From Dickeya dadantii NCPPB 898 (GTDB taxonomy: Bacteria > Pseudomonadota > Gammaproteobacteria > Enterobacterales > Enterobacteriaceae): DNA of 32,000 bases. A program made the translations under genes and the position numbers. The notes under the pieces were generated by a model that worked only from the letters and a program-made list of their open reading frames with translations, was not told the origin of the DNA and did no database searches. The stretch covers positions 2,555,397 to 2,587,396 of the forward strand of contig NZ_CM001976.1 of the NCBI RefSeq assembly GCF_000406145.1. The letters are read 5' to 3'. Shown here piece by piece: positions 1 through 32,000 of the stretch (its first letter is position 1; every line of letters begins with the position of its first letter).

Positions 1-2215
1 TTACGCCAACTAACTGATTTGCGCCAACTTTCTTGCACTCAGCCAAAACGTCGCCCGCTGGCACGCTTTCAGCCACCACCACAGCAATATCACGGCGATT
101 CGCCGGGAAACGGGAAATGTCCGCCGCCTCAGGCACCACGCGCTCGGCAAGCTTGTCCCACAGTACTTCAAACACCACGGTGCGCCCGTTAAGATCCAGC
201 TTGCGCTCCAGCTCCGGGTGAATCACACCGATATAACCGATGCGCTCGCCAGCCAGATAAATGGCCGCGGTCTGTCCCGGATGCAGCGCCGGATGACTCT
301 CAGCCCGGAACTCAAGTACAGACAGTTTCCCGGTCAATGCCAATACGGCTTCCAAATCGCCTTTCAAATCATAGAAGTCAACCGCCTGACGCGCCAGATC
401 CCAGTGTTCCTCGTACCGGGTGCCGGTAATCACGCCAGCCAGCATGGTTTCCTGACGCACACCCAAATCCGCGCGCTGATCCGGAACAAAGCGCAGGCCG
501 CTCTCAAACAGGCGCAGCCGGCTTTGCTGGCGGTTCTGGTTGTACACCACCGCACCCAGCAGACCGCTCCACAGCGACAGGCGCATCGCGGACATTTCCA
601 CCGAAATCGGACTCGGCAGAATCAGCGCATCTTCACCGGGGTGAATCAACGACTGGATTTTGGGATCGACGAAGCTGTAGGTAATCGCTTCCTGAAAGCC
701 GTGATCGACCAGCAGGGTTTTCACACGCTTAAGCGCCAGATCCGCCTCGCGATGTTGCGTCATCTTCAGCGGCGCCTGAGTAGGAATATTCGGAATGTTG
801 TTGTAGCCGTAAACACGCGCCACTTCTTCCACCAAATCTTCCTCAATCGCCATATCGAAACGCCAGCTCGGCGCCACCGCCTGCCAGCCATCGGCTGTCT
901 GGGTTACCTGGCAACCCAGACGATTCAGAATATCGCTGACTTTCTCATCGGAAATCACATGCCCGATCAAACGATCCAGCTTGTCGCGACGCAGTGCGAT
1001 GGTGGCGCGTACCGGCAGGTCTTTCTCGCTGACCGCCTCCACCACTGGGCCGGCTTCACCGCCGCAGATATCCAGCAGCAGGCGGGTTGCACGCTCCATC
1101 GCCTGATGCTGCAAGGCCGGGTCCACGCCGCGCTCATAGCGGTGCGACGCATCAGTATGCAGGCCGTAACGGCGCGCGCGCCCGGTGATCGACAGCGGAT
1201 TAAAGTAAGCGCACTCCAGCAGCACATCCTGCGTTTCGCCGTTCACGCCGGAATGTTCTCCGCCGAAGATGCCGCCCATAGCTAGCGCTTTTTGATGATC
1301 GGCAATCACCAGCGTGTCGGCGCTCAGGGTAGCGTCGGTGCCGTCCAGCAGACGCAGGGTTTCCCCTTCTTTTGCCATACGCACCACGATACCGCCTTCC
1401 AGACGGTTAAGATCGAACGCATGCATCGGCTGCCCCAGCTCCAGCAATACGTAGTTGGTGACATCCACCACCGGGTCGATAGAGCGAATACCGCAGCGAC
1501 GCAGTTTTTCGCGCATCCACAGCGGCGTGGCGGCCTTAACGTTGATCCCCTTGACCACTCGGCCCAGATAACGCGGGCACGCCTCGGTCGCGTCCACCTG
1601 AATCGGGAAACGATCGGCGATGGTCGCGGTCACCGGTTCAGTCGTCGGCGCAGTCAGCGCCAGTTCATTCAGCACCGCGACGTCACGCGCCACGCCCAGA
1701 ATCCCCAGGCAGTCAGCACGGTTCGGGGTCACGCTGATTTCGATGGTATTGTCATCCAGCTTCAGGTACTCGCGGATGTCGGTGCCGAGCGGCGCGTCAG
1801 CCGGCAATTCGATAATGCCGCTGTGATCGTCGGAGATCCCCAGTTCGGAGAAGGAGCACAGCATTCCTTCAGACGGTTCGCCACGCAGCTTGGCCGCCTT
1901 GATTTTGAAATCGCCCGGCAAAACGGCACCCACGGTAGCCACCGCTACTTTGAGGCCCTGACGGCAGTTAGGCGCGCCGCAAACGATATCCAGCAGACGA
2001 TCGCCGCCGACGTTGACTTTCGTCACGCGCAATTTGTCCGCGTTCGGATGCTGTGCGCACTCCACCACTTCCCCAACGACCACGCCGTGGAACGCGCCTG
2101 CAACCGGCTCAACGCCGTCCACTTCCAGACCGGCCATGGTGATTTGTTCAGATAAGGCATCGCTGCTGATGGCTGGGTTAACCCATTCCCGTAACCAGAG
2201 TTCACTGAATTTCAT
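1..2215 (-). CDS. pheT: phenylalanine--tRNA ligase beta subunit; N-terminal ~738 codons, with the 3' end beyond the window start
   Basis: Reverse-strand ATG at 2213-2215, 15 nt after the pheS stop. My translation [71 protein letters not shown] matches the enterobacterial PheT N-terminus. No minus ORF starting at 2215 is listed in the track, consistent with no in-window stop. The + ORFs 218-1285 and 1292-2155 are antisense shadows. Confidence 0.93.
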
Positions 2216-2230
2216 GTTGATATTCCTGCC

Positions 2231-3271
<1,041 letters not shown>

Positions 3272-3320
3272 TCAGTACGCCGGACGTTAACACTACTCAC
3301 GAATTTTGGAATCGAGTCCA

Positions 3321-3348
3321 ATAAAAAAGCCTCCACAGAGGAGGCTTA
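3321..3348 (-). terminator. pheST attenuator (rho-independent terminator between pheM and pheS)
   Basis: On the minus strand: AAGCCTCC-TCTGT-GGAGGCTT followed by TTTTTT. It lies between the Phe-rich leader peptide and pheS, as in the E. coli pheST attenuator. Confidence 0.75.
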
Positions 3349-3393
3349 GGCGCTACTTTTCGTTTCTGTTCTTACGCGCAAAGCCCCCGATGT

Positions 3394-3438
3394 TCAGGCG
3401 CTAAAGTAAAAAAAGAAACGGAAAATAGCAGCGTTCAT
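3394..3438 (-). CDS. pheM: pheST operon leader peptide (Phe-rich, 14 aa)
   Basis: Reverse-strand ATG AAC GCT GCT ATT TTC CGT TTC TTT TTT TAC TTT AGC GCC TGA translates to [14 protein letters not shown]. Five of the 14 codons are Phe. E. coli PheM, from memory, is [14 protein letters not shown]. Confidence 0.85.
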   Translation of the reverse strand: [14 protein letters not shown]

Positions 3439-3450
3439 ACTTGCGTTACC

Positions 3451-3514
3451 TTAATTGTTACCTGGATAGATTGTTATTTGGATAAATTGTTGTATGGCTA
3501 ATTGTTATCTAACT
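3451..3514. repeat. four phased 15-16 bp direct repeats with core ATTGTTA
   Basis: ATTGTT occurs at 3454, 3470, 3486 and 3501 (ttaattgttacctgga / tagattgttatttgga / taaattgttgtatggc / taattgttatctaact). An inverted copy (ttgacaat) lies at about 3517-3524. The array is immediately upstream of pheM. Confidence 0.7.
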
Positions 3515-3596
3515 CGTTGACAATATACCAATTTCGCTCGTTCTGAAAGTCTTTCGTCGGCAATTGCGGAGCGTTGTCGGCTTTCACCGGCCTCAA

Positions 3597-3627
3597 AGAC
3601 GAAAAGAGGGAGACAAGCTCCCTCTTT
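3597..3627 (-). terminator. rho-independent terminator after rplT
   Basis: GAGGGAG (3606-3612) pairs with CTCCCTC (3618-3624). On the minus strand it is followed by TTTTCGTCTTT, and it sits 9 nt after the rplT stop. Confidence 0.75.
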
Positions 3628-3635
3628 CATCTGAC

Positions 3636-4010
<375 letters not shown>

Positions 4011-4035
4011 TTATTCTGAATTAAAAAAAGGTTAC

Positions 4036-4254
<219 letters not shown>

Positions 4255-4279
4255 TTAAACAATGAATCAGATAAGGCGA

Positions 4280-4310
4280 ACAAAAACCGCGCTACACGAA
4301 GGCAGCGCGG
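4280..4310 (-). terminator. terminator-like hairpin after infC, inside the rpmI leader (the region of the L20 translational operator in E. coli)
   Basis: CCGCGCT (4287-4293) pairs with AGCGCGG (4304-4310). On the minus strand the hairpin is followed by TTTTTG. A role as attenuator or operator is inferred from the E. coli infC-rpmI-rplT literature. Confidence 0.5.
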
Positions 4311-4329
4311 AACGTGTTACTTGAATGCC

Positions 4330-4872
4330 TTACTGTTTCTTCTTCGGTGCCAGCACCATAATCATCTGACGCCCTTCGATCTTACTAGGGAACGACTCAA
4401 CGACAGACAATTCATTCAGATCGTCACGAATGCGATTAAGCATTTCGATGCCGATCTGCTGGTGTGCCATTTCACGGCCGCGGAAACGCAGCGTGATTTT
4501 AGCTTTGTCACCATCTTCCAGAAAGCGAACCAGGTTGCGTAGTTTGACCTGATAGTCGCCATCATCGGTACCAGGCCGGAATTTGATTTCCTTGACCTGA
4601 ATAACTTTTTGTTTCTTCTTCTGTTCTTTAGTGGCCTTACTCTTCTCATAGAGGAACTTGCCGTAATCCATGATTCGGCAAACCGGCGGCTCGGCGTTCG
4701 GGCTGATTTCAACTAAATCAACACCTGCTTCCTCAGCTTTCTCTAACGCTTCATTCAGGCTGACAATACCAAGCTGTTCGCCATCAACGCCCGTCAGACG
4801 TACCTCTTGTGCGCGAATTTCTCTGTTGATGCGATTAGGACGCGCCGGTTGAACTCGTTTTCCGCCTTTAAT
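4330..4872 (-). CDS. infC: translation initiation factor IF-3 with a non-canonical AUU start
   Basis: The track ORF (4330-4671) begins only at an internal Met. Reading upstream in frame gives ATT AAA GGC GGA AAA CGA..., translating to [73 protein letters not shown].... This equals the E. coli IF3 N-terminus, which famously uses AUU. The total is 180 aa, and the start lies 3 nt after the thrS stop. Confidence 0.93.
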
Positions 4873-4875
4873 ACC

Positions 4876-6804
4876 TTATTCCTCCAACTGATGAAGACTA
4901 CGGCTGCGAATCTCTTCCTGCAGCTTCGTGATTACTTCACTGACGTCCAGACTTCCCAAGTCTTTGCCGCGGCGGGTACGGACAGCTACTTTGCCTGCCT
5001 CTACCTCTTTGTCGCCACAAACCAGCATATAGGGAACACGCCGTAAAGTGTGCTCGCGGATTTTAAAGCCAATCTTCTCATTTCTCAAGTCCGCTTTAAC
5101 GCGAATCCCAGCATCTTGCAATTTTCTTGTCAATTCGCTGACATAATCAGACTGCGTATCGGTGATATTCATCACCACAGCCTGCACCGGCGCCAACCAG
5201 GTTGGGAAGAAACCGGCAAACTCTTCGGTCAGAATCCCGATAAAACGCTCCATCGACCCCAGTATTGCCCGATGAATCATCACCGGCACCTGACGTTCGT
5301 TGTTTTCGCCGACATAGGATGCACTCAGGCGGCCCGGCAGCGAGAAGTCAAGCTGTACCGTACCACACTGCCAGGCGCGATCCAGACAGTCATGCAAAGT
5401 AAACTCGATTTTCGGACCGTAAAACGCGCCCTCACCCGGCTGATAGTCAAACGGAATGCCGTTTTCAGTCAGCGCCGCCGCCAGATCCTCTTCCGCCCGA
5501 TCCCACATGTCATCGCTGCCGATGCGTTTTTCAGGACGCGTTGACAGTTTCACCACGATTTTTTCAAAACCGAAGGTGCTGTACATGTCGTACACCATCT
5601 TGATGCAGCTATTCACTTCATCGCGCACCTGCTCTTCGGTACAGAAGATGTGGGCATCATCCTGCGTAAAACCGCGCACACGCATCAAGCCATGCAGGGA
5701 GCCTGATGGCTCGTTACGGTGACAACTGCCGAACTCCGCCATACGCAGCGGCAGATCGCGGTAAGATTTCAGTCCCTGATTGAAGATCTGTACGTGACCA
5801 GGGCAGTTCATCGGCTTGATGCAGTATTCACGGTTTTCAGACGACGTCGTGAACATGGCCTCTTTATAGTTTTCCCAGTGGCCGGTTTTTTCCCACAGCA
5901 CACGGTCCATCATGAACGGACCTTTTACTTCCTGATATTGATACTCTTTGAGCTTCATGCGCACAAAGGCTTCCAGCTCGCGGAAAATCGTCCAGCCATC
6001 GTTATGCCAGAACACCATACCCGGTGCTTCTTCCTGCATGTGATACAGGTCCAACTGCTTGCCGATTTTACGGTGGTCGCGCTTGGCGGCTTCTTCAAGA
6101 CGCTGCAGGTAAGCGCTCAGTTGTTTCTTATCTGCCCAGGCGGTACCATAAATACGCTGCAGCATTTTATTCTTGCTGTCGCCGCGCCAGTAAGCGCCCG
6201 ACGTTTTCTGCAGTTTAAAATGATGGCAGAAGCGCATGTTCGGTACGTGCGGCCCACGGCACATATCGATATATTCTTCGTGGTGATACAGCCCAGGGCG
6301 GTCATCATGGCTGATATTTTCATCCAGAATCGCCACCTTGTAGCTTTCGCCACGCGCCGCAAACGTATCACGCGCTTCCTGCCAGCTGACTTTTTTCTTG
6401 ATAACGTCGTAGTCTTTGCTCGCCAGTTCATGCATCCGCTTTTCAAGCAGGTCCAGATCTTCCTGAGTCAGGGTGCGGTCCAGATCAACGTCATAATAGA
6501 AACCGTTGTCGATAACCGGGCCAATCGCCATTTTGGTGTCCGGCCACAATTGCTTGATAGCATGACCGAGCAGGTGCGCGCAGGAATGACGAAGGATTTC
6601 TACACCATCTTCATCCTTGGCGGTAATAATGGACAACTGAGCATCAGATTCAATCAGATCGGTTGCATCGACCAGTTCGCCATTGACCCGACCGGCGATA
6701 CAGGCTTTCGCCAGACCCGGGCCGATATCCAATGCGACATCAAGAGGAGAAACGGCATGGTCATAATGACGCTGGCTGCCGTCAGGAAGCGTAATAACAG
6801 GCAT
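4876..6804 (-). CDS. thrS: threonine--tRNA ligase
   Basis: [47 protein letters not shown]... (642 aa from the ATG at 6802-6804). The 11-codon upstream extension in the track is not homologous to ThrS. Confidence 0.96.
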
Positions 6805-28801: not shown

Positions 28802-29029
28802 TTAACATTTTTCCAGAATCAAAATCTGCGCTTCGCCTTTGCGCACGCTGATCGCCGCGCCACGCAGGCGCAGCTCAATCGGGTCGCCCAACGGCGCCAC
28901 GCGCGACACCGAAAACTCCACCCCCGGCGTGACCCCCAGCGCCAACAGACGCTTGCGGTAATCCGCCGATCCTTTCTGAAACCCCAGCACACGCCACTGT
29001 GTGCCCACCGCCAATGCTTCCAGTGTCAT
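28802..29029 (-). CDS. feoA: FeoA-domain protein (feoB-proximal copy)
   Basis: 75 aa: MTLEALAVGTQWRVLGFQKGSADYRKRLLALGVTPGVEFSVSRVAPLGDPIELRLRGAAISVRKGEAQILILEKC. This is the typical FeoA SH3-like pattern. The stop lies 22 nt before the feoB ATG. Confidence 0.85.
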   Translation of the reverse strand: MTLEALAVGTQWRVLGFQKGSADYRKRLLALGVTPGVEFSVSRVAPLGDPIELRLRGAAISVRKGEAQILILEKC

Positions 29030-29151: not shown

Positions 29152-29391
29152 TTATTGCTGCGGCGACACCCACACCTGCTTGCCCATCTCCCAGTTGATC
29201 GCCACCCGGCTGTCGCCGGAGGCCAGCATCAACGGCTGATTGGCGTCGCGCTGAATCACGCGCACCTGCCCGCCGACGCGGATGCCAAGCTCGGTCAGCC
29301 GCTGCTGGTATTCGCCTGTCGAACGAATTCGCGCCACCACGGCATTCACGTTAAGGGGGAGATCAAGCAGCGTTTGAAGACTCAGGGCCAT
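29152..29391 (-). CDS. feoA: second FeoA-domain protein (promoter-proximal copy)
   Basis: From the ATG at 29389-29391 (AAGGA 8 nt upstream): MALSLQTLLDLPLNVNAVVARIRSTGEYQQRLTELGIRVGGQVRVIQRDANQPLMLASGDSRVAINWEMGKQVWVSPQQ (79 aa). It shows the same FeoA pattern (L..G.....R......RL..LG...G..v.v......P......g..iai......i.V). The track start is a TTG 13 codons upstream. Confidence 0.75.
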   Translation of the reverse strand: MALSLQTLLDLPLNVNAVVARIRSTGEYQQRLTELGIRVGGQVRVIQRDANQPLMLASGDSRVAINWEMGKQVWVSPQQ

Positions 29392-29459
29392 ACGACAATC
29401 CTTCACTGACAGTGTGCGGCATCCCGCCAACCCACTGGCGGTAATCCATCAAAGCAAGT

Positions 29460-29514: not shown

Positions 29515-29691
29515 GGGAGGTGAAGATTGGGGGAGTGGTGGTAAGGTATGGGGTTTATGTGTGAAGCCACAGTAAGGAAAATTATGCTATCGGTTACGTC
29601 CCTGACGGTAGCAGAGCAAGGACAAATCGCCGCCACAGTTCATGCTGAAGGGCCGTTGGCTGAGAGACTGGATTCAGTTGAGATTATTATC

Positions 29692-30234
29692 ATGAGCAAA
29701 AAAAACACAGATATCAGTAAGTTTTTAAGTTACATATTACGCCATGAACCTGAAGTCATAGGTTTATCTTTGGACAAAGAAGGGTGGGCTATTATAAGCG
29801 ATCTTATCCTTTGCGCCGTTAAAGAAGGCTATACACTCGATAATAGTCTTATTCATAGTATCGTGGATAATAGTGATAAAAAACGCTTTACGATTTCAGA
29901 TGATGGATTACGTATCCGGGCAGCTCAAGGGCATTCATCGCAACAGGTAAATATAACGTATGAAGAAAAAATCCCTCCCGAGTTTTTATATCATGGAACT
30001 GCAACACGATTCCTAATATCAATTCGCGCTCAGGGATTACATGCAAAAGATCGACAATATGTCCATCTATCTGCCGATAAAGAGACAGCAATTCAAGTTG
30101 GAAGTCGGCATGGAAAACCGATTGCACTAAAAATAAAAGCCCTGACTATGTATGAACAGGGCTTTAAGTTTTATCAAGCAGACAATGCCGTCTGGCTAAC
30201 TGATTCTGCTCCCCATCAATACATTGATGAATAA
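29692..30234 (+). CDS. kptA: RNA 2'-phosphotransferase (Tpt1/KptA family)
   Basis: From the ATG at 29692: MSKKNTDISKFLSYILRHEPEVIGLSLDKEGWAIISDLILCAVKEGY...SDKKRFTISDDGLRIRAAQGHSSQQVNITYEEKIPPEFLYHGTATRFLISIRAQGL..DRQYVHLSADKETAIQVGSRHGKPIALKIKA...FYQADNAVWLT (180 aa). It is collinear with E. coli KptA (..[82 protein letters not shown]..), and the catalytic R-H...R...R residues are present. The frame is open upstream, so alternative starts are the ATG at 29584 (strong TAAGGA SD) or 29548. Confidence 0.87.
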   Translation: MSKKNTDISKFLSYILRHEPEVIGLSLDKEGWAIISDLILCAVKEGYTLDNSLIHSIVDNSDKKRFTISDDGLRIRAAQGHSSQQVNITYEEKIPPEFLYHGTATRFLISIRAQGLHAKDRQYVHLSADKETAIQVGSRHGKPIALKIKALTMYEQGFKFYQADNAVWLTDSAPHQYIDE

Positions 30235-30630
30235 CTATTCATTATCATCTGCCCGTTCAGCTTTATAACGGGCAGATTCCAGATGAGCTATTTTCAACCA
30301 TTCAGAAAAATTATCTGTGTAACCTCTGTTTTCCCAACCAGCGGCGGCAAAGGCATGAACATAGTATATCTTTGGATTACCAGATGTATCCTCGCCGTCA
30401 AAACAAACAATATCATCTGAGTAATTAATTTTGGCAAAAGGCACTAGCTTCCTATTAGGATATTTCGCCTTAACCTCATGCATCCAAAACACTGAAGACT
30501 CTTTAAATTCACAGATGAATGACCACGGTTCTATATCAGGAATAACATCTAAAGACATTATCTCCAGATAAAGATCCGGATATTTAAATCCATCAGGAAG
30601 ATCATCTTTTTTATATAAATAGCTATTCAT
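30235..30630 (-). CDS. cdiI: CDI immunity protein, SUKH / SMI1-KNR4-like
   Basis: 131 aa starting 3 nt after the cdiA stop, the typical cdiA-cdiI coupling. SUKH-type motifs are present: LPDGFKYPDLYLEIM near the N-terminus and RKLVPFAKINYSDDIVCFDGED...FSEWL. GC is low (about 35% by hand count of 30361-30420). Confidence 0.78.
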   Translation of the reverse strand: MNSYLYKKDDLPDGFKYPDLYLEIMSLDVIPDIEPWSFICEFKESSVFWMHEVKAKYPNRKLVPFAKINYSDDIVCFDGEDTSGNPKIYYVHAFAAAGWENRGYTDNFSEWLKIAHLESARYKAERADDNE

Positions 30631-30633
30631 TCC

Positions 30634-32000
30634 TTACTTCCCTTTTCCAGTTACTCTAGGTACATCATAAGAACCATAGGGATTCTTATCACCAAATCCT
30701 CCTGACTGTTTATTAATTCTTCCAGTTATTGCTTCCCCCCAAGTTTGGGGAATGAAATCACGTTTTCTATCCGAAAAGCGTTCAATCTCTGAAGATGTTA
30801 ACTTATCATCATAGCTTCTAACATTTGCTTCAACTCTAATCCCCGCATCTCTGGCAGCGCTGATCCGAGTATTATCCATACTTGTCATATTACCATCAGG
30901 CATTTTCACAACATCAACCGGATCCCCCTTCCAGCCATCTTTTCTCATGCTGGAAACAAGATCATCATAAGTGTATTTCACACCTGTACCTCGATCTGTT
31001 TTATTATTTGAAACTGTATTTTGTGAAAAGCGAATTTCGTTAGCATCAAAACTTGAGAGTGAACTATTGCCTGGTTTCGCAGTAGAGCCTTTATTCACTG
31101 CTGATTCTATCTGCATCCCTTTCATACCAACCAAAGCAATTGCGATCGCCTGCAACTGCATCGCCGTATCATACTGCGACGCCACTTCATCCCAGCCTTT
31201 TCCGGTTGATTTGGCTATGGCGGTAATGGCTGCATCGCGTGTGATGCTGCCTTCATCCAGCCCTTTCAGGATGGCGCTTGCATTAGCCGCGTCCTGCGGG
31301 TACAGGTCTTTGTAGATCAGACGGTAGCTCGCCGCACTCTCGCCATAACTATTCAGCGCCTGCTGCGCCTTTGCCACCAGTGCCGAGCAGGCCCCGCCTG
31401 ATTTGTTGCCCTGCGTACAGATATCGTGGATAGCCTGATCGCGATCTTTGTCCAGCTTGCGGGTATCCGCCAGCTCTTTGGCTTCGTCCGCCGTCAGTGT
31501 TCCGGCTTTCTCCTTACGCTCCAGATCGGCCTTCGTCTGAGCTTCTGTGGCGCTGAGATAGTTATTCTCCACCGCATTACGCCCGGCCTGCGCACCTGTC
31601 GCCGCACCGGTGGTGTTACCCGACGCAATCCCCGATGCCAGACCGGCCGCCAGCGAAGCCAGCGCGCTTACCGACTGTTTTTCCGCTTCAGTCAGGTCGC
31701 TGGTGTCCCGCCCTGAGTACAGCTCCTTCATGATCAGCAGCCGCGCCGTCAGTTCGCCGCCTGCTGCGCCCACTGCGCCCGCCACCGCATCCTTGCCGGA
31801 CAGTTGCGCCACCACCGCGCCCATCAGCGCATGCCCCATCGCGTTGGCCGCGATGTCCGATGCCGTGGCTTTACTCTCGTCCGCCGGCATCGTCACGCCT
31901 TTCACCAGCTGCGCCAGATACGGCGCCGACGCCCCGGCCAGCGCCTGCTGCAGGTTACCGCCGCCCGCACCGCGCGGATTTCGCCTTCGGTACGGACAAT
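30634..32000 (-). CDS. cdiA: contact-dependent inhibition exoprotein CdiA, C-terminal ~455 codons (the 5' end lies beyond the window)
   Basis: The frame is open to position 32000 by my codon-by-codon check of 31906-31998; the GTG 'start' in the track is internal. It contains a Gly/Ala-rich pre-toxin region (HALMGAVVAQLSGKDAVAGAVGAAGGELTARLL...SALASLAAGLASGIASG...GAQAGRNAVENNYLS). The VENN motif is followed by a 308-aa variable CdiA-CT. Confidence 0.9.
   Translation of the reverse strand, partial: CPYRRRNPRGAGGGNLQQALAGASAPYLAQLVKGVTMPADESKATASDIAANAMGHALMGAVVAQLSGKDAVAGAVGAAGGELTARLLIMKELYSGRDTSDLTEAEKQSVSALASLAAGLASGIASGNTTGAATGAQAGRNAVENNYLSATEAQTKADLERKEKAGTLTADEAKELADTRKLDKDRDQAIHDICTQGNKSGGACSALVAKAQQALNSYGESAASYRLIYKDLYPQDAANASAILKGLDEGSITRDAAITAIAKSTGKGWDEVASQYDTAMQLQAIAIALVGMKGMQIESAVNKGSTAKPGNSSLSSFDANEIRFSQNTVSNNKTDRGTGVKYTYDDLVSSMRKDGWKGDPVDVVKMPDGNMTSMDNTRISAARDAGIRVEANVRSYDDKLTSSEIERFSDRKRDFIPQTWGEAITGRINKQSGGFGDKNPYGSYDVPRVTGKGK
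31561..31572 (-). other. VENN motif marking the CdiA / CdiA-CT boundary
   Basis: The reverse complement of 31561-31572 is GTG GAG AAT AAC, encoding V-E-N-N in the context GRNAVENNYLS. Confidence 0.9.

Follow-up and report, generated by a model that had tools for sequence, protein, structure and literature searches.

A low-GC block at positions 29670-31073 of a 32,000-nucleotide stretch of Dickeya dadantii NCPPB 898 DNA (contig NZ_CM001976.1, positions 2,555,397 to 2,587,396; this whole stretch is called the window below, and coordinates are those of the window unless a locus number is given) is a horizontally mobile three-gene module, which is found in orphan form at the distal end of the Dickeya contact-dependent growth inhibition (CDI; hec/cdi) locus. 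The module consists of a CdiA C-terminal (CdiA-CT) toxin domain, a SUKH immunity gene (cdiI) and kptA, which encodes an RNA 2'-phosphotransferase of the Tpt1/KptA family. The three genes are inherited and exchanged together, as a single unit, in different genera, phyla and delivery systems, and kptA tracks the type of toxin rather than the chromosomal neighbourhood or the immunity family. A polymorphic toxin/immunity module with a repair enzyme as its conserved third gene appears to be new: full-text literature, mostly outside subscription journals, searched for KptA/Tpt1 with toxins, immunity, contact-dependent systems or RNA kinases, and for ParBL1, contained no description of such a linkage, in keeping with the impression given in a preliminary description of this DNA. 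We give about an even chance to the reading that KptA in this conserved module undoes damage done by the toxin, most likely RNA 2'-phosphorylation.

The block is one unit in composition, spacing and homology

The module and its parts were placed as follows.

29670-31073, no strand assigned: mobile cassette of toxin domain, immunity gene and kptA, delimited by the GC profile and the limits of blastn homology.
30634-31073, minus strand: toxin domain with a predicted ParB/sulfiredoxin fold, Tox-ParBL1-like, with the motifs IRFSQ (31021-31035) and DNTR (30865-30876), from AlphaFold2, Foldseek and motifs.
30235-30630, minus strand: cdiI, a SUKH (SMI1/KNR4) immunity protein of 131 aa (PF09346).
29692-30234, plus strand: kptA, an NAD+-dependent RNA 2'-phosphotransferase (Tpt1/KptA family) of 180 aa (PF01885).

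The GC fraction of the block is 0.380 (kptA, 0.383; cdiI, 0.364; toxin domain, 0.391), as against 0.614 on the pre-toxin side of cdiA (31074-32000) and 0.589 over the feo genes. Among 1.4-kb stretches of the window it is the minimum, the runner-up outside the block standing at 0.449. The block contains three genes only, the toxin domain, the SUKH immunity gene and the convergent kptA; the toxin stop codon is 3 nt from the cdiI ATG, and the convergent stop codons of kptA and cdiI are 0 nt apart. These values, together with the Pfam matches given below, bear out the low-GC cassette of the preliminary description, whose gap lengths were also reproduced. When the window was compared by blastn, 14 loci of other genera aligned with it at 72-78% identity, and the alignments were confined to the cassette, starting at 29658-29701 and ending at 31050-31073. 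The DNA homology between genera spans from about 20 nt 5' of the kptA ATG to the start of the toxin domain and therefore coincides with the GC block; with the species and cluster counts given below, this sustains the earlier suggestion that the three genes travelled together. Beyond kptA, no gene was conserved across the loci compared. At the sensitivity of blastn, the cassette was not found in 5,426 complete E. coli genomes.

kptA follows the toxin

In the window kptA adjoins feoA, as would be the case if kptA were a resident Dickeya gene beside which the CDI module had landed by chance. An identical FeoA is present in many Dickeya genomes, and ten distinct neighbourhoods were compared. kptA was found in both neighbourhoods that carry the SUKH module and, at the same site, in none of the eight that carry other CT/immunity types (CdiI_5, Barstar, Imm42, Peptidase_C39, Tox-HNH-EHHH and unnamed ones). 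Because these eight genomes with identical FeoA and other toxins have no kptA, kptA goes with the toxin and not with feoA; an occurrence of kptA beside feoA without this CdiA-CT, which the preliminary description had named as contrary evidence, was not seen in these ten neighbourhoods. Furthermore, kptA has the 38% GC of the cassette and falls inside its homology block, and no feoA was found near kptA in the 15 other species described in the next paragraph. The idea of a resident, feo-linked kptA is refuted by the ten-genome FeoA comparison and retains almost no probability. The window has tandem feoA-like genes (28802-29029 and 29152-29430) ahead of feoB-feoC, and the distal copy, the one identical in many Dickeya genomes, forms the constant edge at which the variability of the CDI region ends. 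Most of the eight kptA-less Dickeya hold a SymE-toxin fragment at that edge: in L098, L101-L104 and L106, a SymE-toxin gene or fragment (~5550-5850) lies between the last immunity gene and feoA, the position occupied by kptA in the window. A SymE-like open reading frame (ORF) was also seen beyond kptA in eight other loci.

A scan with KptA, limited to one genome per species, gave 15 loci with 61-77% KptA identity, and ten of these species had the same convergent arrangement of kptA, SUKH gene and toxin. The genera with the trio include Hafnia, Lonsdalea, Pseudescherichia, Providencia, Pantoea, Phaseolibacter, Erwinia, Photorhabdus and Chimaeribacter. The pre-toxin part of these loci is just 31-37% identical to that of the window.

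For a census that starts from the toxin, metagenomes were scanned with the alignment of toxin homologues; the resulting 80 loci were clustered at 90% toxin identity, and at least 1.1 kb of downstream sequence was required. kptA was directly 3' of the immunity gene in 32 of the 39 informative toxin clusters (28 convergent, 4 co-directional), and in 35 of 42 when the loci ascertained through KptA and the window were added. Chance adjacency of kptA is rejected by these counts, and the co-occurrence of kptA with the toxin across genomes, which the preliminary description had made a test of its proposal, is supported. Nearly all convergent loci have a stop-to-stop gap of 0-33 nt. Pairwise identities of the toxins and of the KptAs were correlated (Spearman 0.59, 528 pairs), and the kptA link persisted at toxin identities down to ~32%. 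The trio was found in Proteobacteria, Actinobacteria and Bacillota, and the toxin carriers were CdiA (VENN), Rhs (DPxGL) and type VII-like proteins. The actinobacterial carrier, on contigs of 65-69% GC, is a protein of ~490-520 aa with a helical and transmembrane N-terminal part, and a gene for an FtsK/EccC-like ATPase lies a few kb upstream in two contigs of 69% GC (L071 and L079).

Three of the actinobacterial loci (L071, L074 and L079) have co-directional toxin-immunity-kptA operons, and in L071 and L079 the immunity stop and kptA start codons overlap in an operon-like manner. On the Bacillus mycoides plasmid pl391 the toxin gene, a SUKH-like gene and a gene annotated 'RNA 2'-phosphotransferase' are co-directional as well, the last two overlapping. 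The KptAs of these distant loci (Actinobacteria and Bacillus) are 34-41% identical to that of the window, whereas the unlinked E. coli KptA is 55% identical to it; because the distant linked KptAs are less similar than the unlinked one, the link between toxin and kptA is either old or arose more than once.

These arrangements bear on the explanation that the linkage is biochemically meaningless, with kptA either hitch-hiking or acting as a convergent unit that terminates or dampens cdiA-CT/cdiI expression. Most proteobacterial loci are indeed convergent with a gap of 0-33 nt, and a conserved terminator-like hairpin for cdiI lies inside kptA (see the last section). However, the co-directional, translationally overlapping operons of Actinobacteria, Bacillus, Aminipila and one Rhs locus do not fit such a role, nor does the invariance of the catalytic residues in 58 KptAs down to 33% identity; in addition, the link survives at ~32% toxin identity and recurs in a second toxin family, the immunity genes of which are different. 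The idea that kptA serves only as an antisense or regulatory element was rejected because co-directional operons exist, and we judge the explanation as a whole to be very unlikely.

Toxin and immunity genes without an adjacent kptA were seen in a human-gut Rhs group (one toxin cluster, 13 contigs), in a Streptococcus Rhs locus, in Neisseria gonorrhoeae MafB, where a SUKH-like gene is present, and in L045, L030, L056, L059 and L070; in L045 an insertion sequence (IS) element immediately follows the immunity gene. Because several toxin lineages lack an adjacent kptA, the gene is either not obligatory or is encoded elsewhere in those genomes.

The toxin domain has a predicted ParB/sulfiredoxin fold

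The toxin domain is the final ~141 residues of the ORF that ends at 30634 on the minus strand. Nothing meaningful was matched in Pfam (E<=10), in NCBIfam, or in the PDB by phmmer or by a profile search. An AlphaFold2 model built from 45 homologues had a predicted local distance difference test score (pLDDT) of 90.7, and all 50 PDB matches listed by Foldseek belonged to the ParB/sulfiredoxin superfamily: the ParB, Noc and KorB CTPases, PadC, sulfiredoxin, the SbnI/SerK serine kinases and uncharacterised ParB-like proteins (E from ~1e-3, template modelling score ~0.4, probability ~1.0 for the best). As modelled, the fold is that of nucleoside triphosphate (NTP)-binding phosphotransferases, represented by sulfiredoxin, the SerK/SbnI kinases and the ParB CTPases. 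In the alignment of 45 sequences, IRFSQ was 70-90% conserved, and within D-N-T-R (SMDNTR) residues T75 and R76 were invariant.

The Tox-ParBL1 family was defined by an N-terminal conserved Ser/Thr, a [NT][RT][RT] motif replacing DGHHR, and SUKH or Imm44 immunity (PMC3482391). The toxin appears to fit that definition, having the Ser of IRFSQ, the N-T-R motif, a modelled ParB/sulfiredoxin fold and a SUKH partner. It also resembles the Tox-ParBL1/Imm-SUKH pairs of that source in the predicted ParB fold and in its carriers, which there comprise type V, type VI/Rhs and type VII secretion systems and MafB. The prototype is N. gonorrhoeae NGK_2271 (same source); the toxin is 52.5% identical, over 86% of the domain, to the C-terminus of a MafB of the same species. 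Two points differ from that account: a nuclease was predicted for the family, and KptA/Tpt1 is not mentioned in its main text, as far as this was available.

A second comparison is with CdiA-ToxB/iToxB of Enterobacterales, in which the C-terminus of CdiA likewise has a fold of the ParB superfamily (bioRxiv 10.64898/2026.05.05.722872). ToxB was found through PF02195, whereas the toxin of the window had no PF02195 match at E<=10; at the equivalent strand-to-helix position ToxB has GNHR (GxxR) and the window toxin DNTR, so that N and R are common and G and H are not. An arginine in this phosphate-binding motif is essential in ToxB, the target of which is unknown; the preprint does not describe iToxB as SUKH and makes no mention of KptA. 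Assignment of the window toxin to the ToxB family, as the preprint describes it, was rejected on the missing PF02195 match and the DNTR motif.

A second toxin family with the NTR motif is also linked to kptA

Examination of plasmid-borne KptAs uncovered a second, distantly related toxin family. On plasmid pBMC401 of Burkholderia ambifaria (L112 3501-7540), kptA is convergent, with a 1-nt gap, with a 130-aa gene that follows CdiA/BcpA. The C-terminus of this BcpA reads ...ANFAQ...PVDYVV..DGTKLILNTRTSVAL..AGIP..., and the family, which comprises 33 clusters, has the signature ANFAQ...LNTRTSVAL. Alignment of the first and second families with hhalign gave E=6.6e-4 and a probability of 27%, and the motifs were aligned as IRFSQ/ANFAQ, DDLV/DDLA, PVDVV/PVDYV and DNTR/LNTR. 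The second-family model had a pLDDT of 93.4, and 13 of its 15 top Foldseek matches were ParB/sulfiredoxin structures, weakly matched (E 0.05-0.7). No SUKH match was found for the second-family immunity genes. kptA lies 3' of the immunity gene in five of the seven lineages checked, namely B. ambifaria, Aminipila terrae (Clostridia, co-directional) and three metagenomic lineages; one lineage was ambiguous, and one, Rhodocyclus tenuis, was negative, with IS1595 after the immunity gene. Loci of this family other than pBMC401 include L116, L117, L121 and L122. Because a second family with unrelated immunity genes also has kptA, kptA is partnered with the toxin type, whichever immunity family is present. 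The link thereby holds in three phyla, with no fewer than three delivery systems and with two families of immunity proteins.

KptA is probably a working enzyme

KptA matched Pfam PF01885 (PTS_2-RNA) with E=4.6e-46 over profile positions 2-176 of 177, and scored 236.9 bits against the NCBIfam equivalog NF002014, slightly under the cut-off of 239. The motifs LRHEP, KKRF and IRAAQGHS are all present, as the preliminary description had stated. Residues R17, H18, R65 and R121, which we take from Tpt1 work to be the Arg-His-Arg-Arg catalytic tetrad, are invariant together with the GHS and HGT motifs in 58 cassette-linked KptAs. Because this conservation is kept while the proteins diverge to 33% identity, it argues for a working enzyme.

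The start at 29692 agrees with the point at which homology between loci begins, ~20 nt further 5'. On the 5' side of the conserved MSKKN start the reading frame stays open for another 48 codons (29548-29691), and the gene calls in databases make use of this extension (216 aa), so an exact-sequence look-up of the 180-aa form gave no match; the short form is likely the product, judging from where the homology begins. The exact-sequence look-up of P0083 was also without a match. A promoter scan gave no sigma-70-like site for kptA on the plus strand and fewer sites in total than in shuffled sequence.

The nearest kptA genes that are not linked to toxins belong to four Xenorhabdus species (61-65% identity). 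In L010, L012, L013 and L014 (~2000-6550), kptA is the last gene of an rtcR-rtcB-nucleotidyltransferase-kptA cluster, an RNA-repair context little studied in bacteria. These operons share with the window a closely related KptA and differ from it in having no toxin or immunity gene, another operon partner and a weaker antisense hairpin (see the last section).

The toxin gene is an orphan cdiA-CT fragment

The preliminary description had taken the toxin domain as the 3' end of cdiA. The toxin ORF is instead a 5'-truncated orphan cdiA-CT fragment that follows a main cdiA with a different toxin and immunity pair. The remaining part of the fragment is the following feature.

31074-32000, minus strand: pre-toxin part of the orphan cdiA fragment, of host GC, with VENN, the DUF6862/entry region and a recombination handle (PT-VENN and DUF6862).

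PF04829 (PT-VENN, E=6.7e-21, with the VENN motif at 31561-31572) and DUF6862 both lie upstream of the toxin domain. The exact CdiI sequence is present in two NCBI genomes, CM001982.1 and CP023467.1, which we take to be Dickeya dadantii strains; its neighbours there are hrp/harpin genes and a hecB/cdiB-type transporter. Over the 6 kb that were compared, identity between the window and CP023467.1 was 100%. In that genome the main cdiA ends at L097 7406, ~950 nt upstream of the fragment (start ~L097 8355); its C-terminus, which is rich in glycine, differs from that of the fragment, and its immunity gene is of 88 aa. No two-partner secretion/filamentous hemagglutinin (TPS/FHA) secretion part is present in the fragment, which carries a deletion and a frameshift internally, near 31905-32000. 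Of the 111 residues 5' of VENN, 110 match the main CdiA of the same genome exactly, and this stretch would be a ready handle for recombination with the main cdiA.

Orphan cdiA-CT/cdiI modules downstream of CDI loci were reportedly described by Poole et al. in 2011. The window module resembles them in its 5'-truncated cdiA with VENN before a variable CT, in the immunity gene directly 3' of the toxin, in its position after the cdiB/cdiA/cdiI genes, and in the near-identical stretch upstream of VENN that permits recombination; unlike the described CDI modules that we found, it has a conserved third gene for an RNA-repair enzyme. Standalone units are also mentioned in the ToxB preprint (bioRxiv 10.64898/2026.05.05.722872). 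The main cdiA is broken into several ORFs, of 668 and 1427 aa in L097 (739-7406) and in smaller pieces in L096 (3987-7787). The Dickeya CDI system may thus be undergoing decay, with the orphan immunity gene and kptA still intact, and in its orphan state the toxin of this window is probably not exported.

KptA as a possible eraser of a toxin-made lesion

The question of what bacterial KptA is for has been open since the enzyme was discovered in E. coli. A toxin family that is almost always accompanied by kptA points to a possible source of the RNA substrate of KptA. In the literature bacterial KptA substrates are called unknown, and an RNA 2'-kinase/KptA pair is on record: the kinase ArkI writes a 2'-phosphate on tRNA (2'-phosphouridine 47; Ohira et al. 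2022), and the mark is removed by KptA, that of E. coli doing so in vivo (PMC9095486). Because such a pair is known and the toxin has a ParB/sulfiredoxin fold of the phosphotransferase type, the antidote or repair role that the preliminary description had suggested for KptA is now better motivated. We tentatively propose that ParBL1-type polymorphic toxins are RNA 2'-hydroxyl kinases and that bacterial KptA/Tpt1 is, at least in part, the eraser of that lesion, a proposal that we regard as possible but doubtful; the RNA 2'-kinase step, taken alone, seems to us equally open to doubt.

In detail, the toxin of the module would reach neighbouring cells once it had recombined with the main cdiA by way of the identical stretch of 111 residues. 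In the target cell it would transfer a phosphate from an NTP to a 2'-hydroxyl of RNA, either tRNA or rRNA and either internally or at the 3' end, and the 2'-phosphorylation would block translation. Protection would come in two layers, with the SUKH protein binding and blocking the toxin and KptA removing the lesion with NAD+. Even in the orphan state, cdiI and kptA could still protect against neighbours that deploy the toxin.

Several points weigh against this proposal. We know of no ParB/sulfiredoxin-fold enzyme that phosphorylates RNA; the substrates known for such enzymes are CTP or ATP, which they hydrolyse, and serine or a protein sulfinate, which they phosphorylate. An immunity protein that binds its toxin is normally enough alone, and several lineages, as noted above, have toxin and immunity genes with no adjacent kptA. 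The RNA-kinase chemistry is read from a modelled fold and not from biochemistry of this family, and the fold matches, although consistent, are weak in both families (E~1e-3 and TM~0.4 in the first; E 0.05-0.7 in the second). The paper from Aravind's group predicts a nuclease for Tox-ParBL1 (PMC3482391). Finally, ToxB, the sole characterised ParB-fold CDI toxin, is a slow ATPase of unknown target for which no RNA link was reported (bioRxiv 10.64898/2026.05.05.722872).

If the toxin were a metal-dependent RNase or phosphodiesterase, KptA might heal RNA ends, clearing terminal 2'-phosphates derived from 2',3'-cyclic ends for a ligase of the RtcB type. The Xenorhabdus rtcR-rtcB-nucleotidyltransferase-kptA operons, with their close KptA relatives, are consistent with such a role, yet no ligase or 2H phosphoesterase gene was seen beside the trio in any locus examined, and RtcB seals 3'-phosphate or cyclic ends directly, with no 2'-phosphate at the junction. 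A review assigns KptA to the clean-up of cleaved RNA ends (PMC9503650). Zhang et al. 2012, who favour a nuclease role, themselves call the evidence for ParB nucleases flawed and the convincing chemistry phosphotransfer (PMC3482391). We consider the RNase explanation unlikely.

KptA could also act by ADP-ribosylating a phosphate, either capping 5'-phosphate ends made by the toxin or modifying, and so neutralising, a phosphorylated small molecule or a toxin-nucleotide complex. In vitro, enzymes of the Tpt1/KptA family attach ADP-ribose to the 5'-phosphate ends of RNA and DNA (PMC11833690; PMC12678800), and the authors of the ToxB preprint suspect that their toxin, which is of related fold, makes a toxic product from ATP (bioRxiv 10.64898/2026.05.05.722872). 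Against this, no ADP-ribosyl hydrolase (macro, ARH or NADAR domain) was linked to the trio, and a cap that masks an end would not restore function; no precedent is known for protection by 5'-capping. This explanation is, in our view, quite unlikely.

Returning to the 2'-kinase proposal, the pair of writer and eraser would resemble ArkI/KptA in having an ATP-dependent 2'-phosphate writer and an NAD+-using KptA as eraser; ArkI, unlike the window toxin, has a protein-kinase-like fold and is a housekeeping modifier in thermophilic archaea, where its mark is beneficial and not toxic (PMC9095486). ADP-ribosylhydrolase immunity against ADP-ribosyltransferase (ART) toxins is also on record in the polymorphic toxin literature (PMC3482391).

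Enzymes that reverse a toxin's modification serve as immunity protein or antitoxin in Tre1-Tri1 and DarT-DarG. As in these systems and in ADP-ribosylhydrolase immunity, a mark-erasing enzyme would be encoded beside the toxin; in contrast to all of these, where immunity protein or antitoxin and hydrolase are one and the same, the window has a separate predicted binding immunity protein, and the chemistry would be removal of phosphate rather than of ADP-ribose.

The role of ParB/sulfiredoxin-fold toxins is another question on which this module bears; their prediction dates from 2012, and for a related toxin a 2026 preprint reports ATPase activity and no target. If the kinase proposal is true, the chemistry of the toxin is new and represents a hitherto undescribed way in which bacteria kill each other, bacterial KptA/Tpt1 gains its first physiological substrate in bacteria, a separate repair enzyme forms a second layer of immunity on top of the usual toxin/immunity pair, and target cells that carry kptA may be partly resistant. 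Arrest of translation also produces compaction of the nucleoid. Because ToxB, which is a slow ATPase and toxic in plant cells, likewise causes rapid nucleoid compaction (bioRxiv 10.64898/2026.05.05.722872), the kinase idea, if true, would offer a mechanism worth testing for this still-unexplained toxin of a different clade.

The immunity gene, 3'-end hairpins and neighbours of kptA

CdiI matched PF09346 (SMI1_KNR4) marginally, at 25.8 bits with a cut-off of 25.4, and PF14568 under its cut-off; no sequence relative was found in the PDB. CdiI homologues with 27-79% identity lie directly 3' of the toxin in nearly all loci. Two inverted repeats were noted where cdiI and kptA converge.

30128-30173, minus strand: terminator-like hairpin for the cdiA-CT/cdiI transcript, with arms AAAGCCCTG/CAGGGCTTT and a T-run (inverted repeat I1).
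30247-30277, plus strand: perfect 11-nt inverted repeat just past the kptA stop codon, within the 3' end of cdiI (inverted repeat I2).

The first has a 9-bp GC-rich stem and lies antisense in the 3' coding part of kptA, in the codons for KAL...QGF. Because the gap between the genes is 0 nt and the cdiI hairpin is inside kptA, the kptA and cdiI mRNAs must overlap at their 3' ends. The antisense hairpin was seen in 14 of the 23 convergent loci checked, both arms varying with the pairing kept, and is weaker in the Xenorhabdus kptA genes that have no toxin linkage. In Kalamiella (L006 6001-6546) it is kept in a kptA that is 72% identical and has no toxin or immunity neighbours; this gene may be the remnant of a lost cassette. 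The second repeat, which lacks a T-run and had no counterpart in the other loci checked, is a possible kptA terminator stem.

In at least nine loci (L111 3042-4094, L122 2531-3635, L005, L023, L027, L029, L049, L067 and L068), an XRE-type helix-turn-helix gene adjoins kptA, at the end opposite to the immunity gene, and could reflect regulated expression of kptA. In L111 and L122 it lies directly upstream of kptA on the same strand; the window lacks a gene of this kind.

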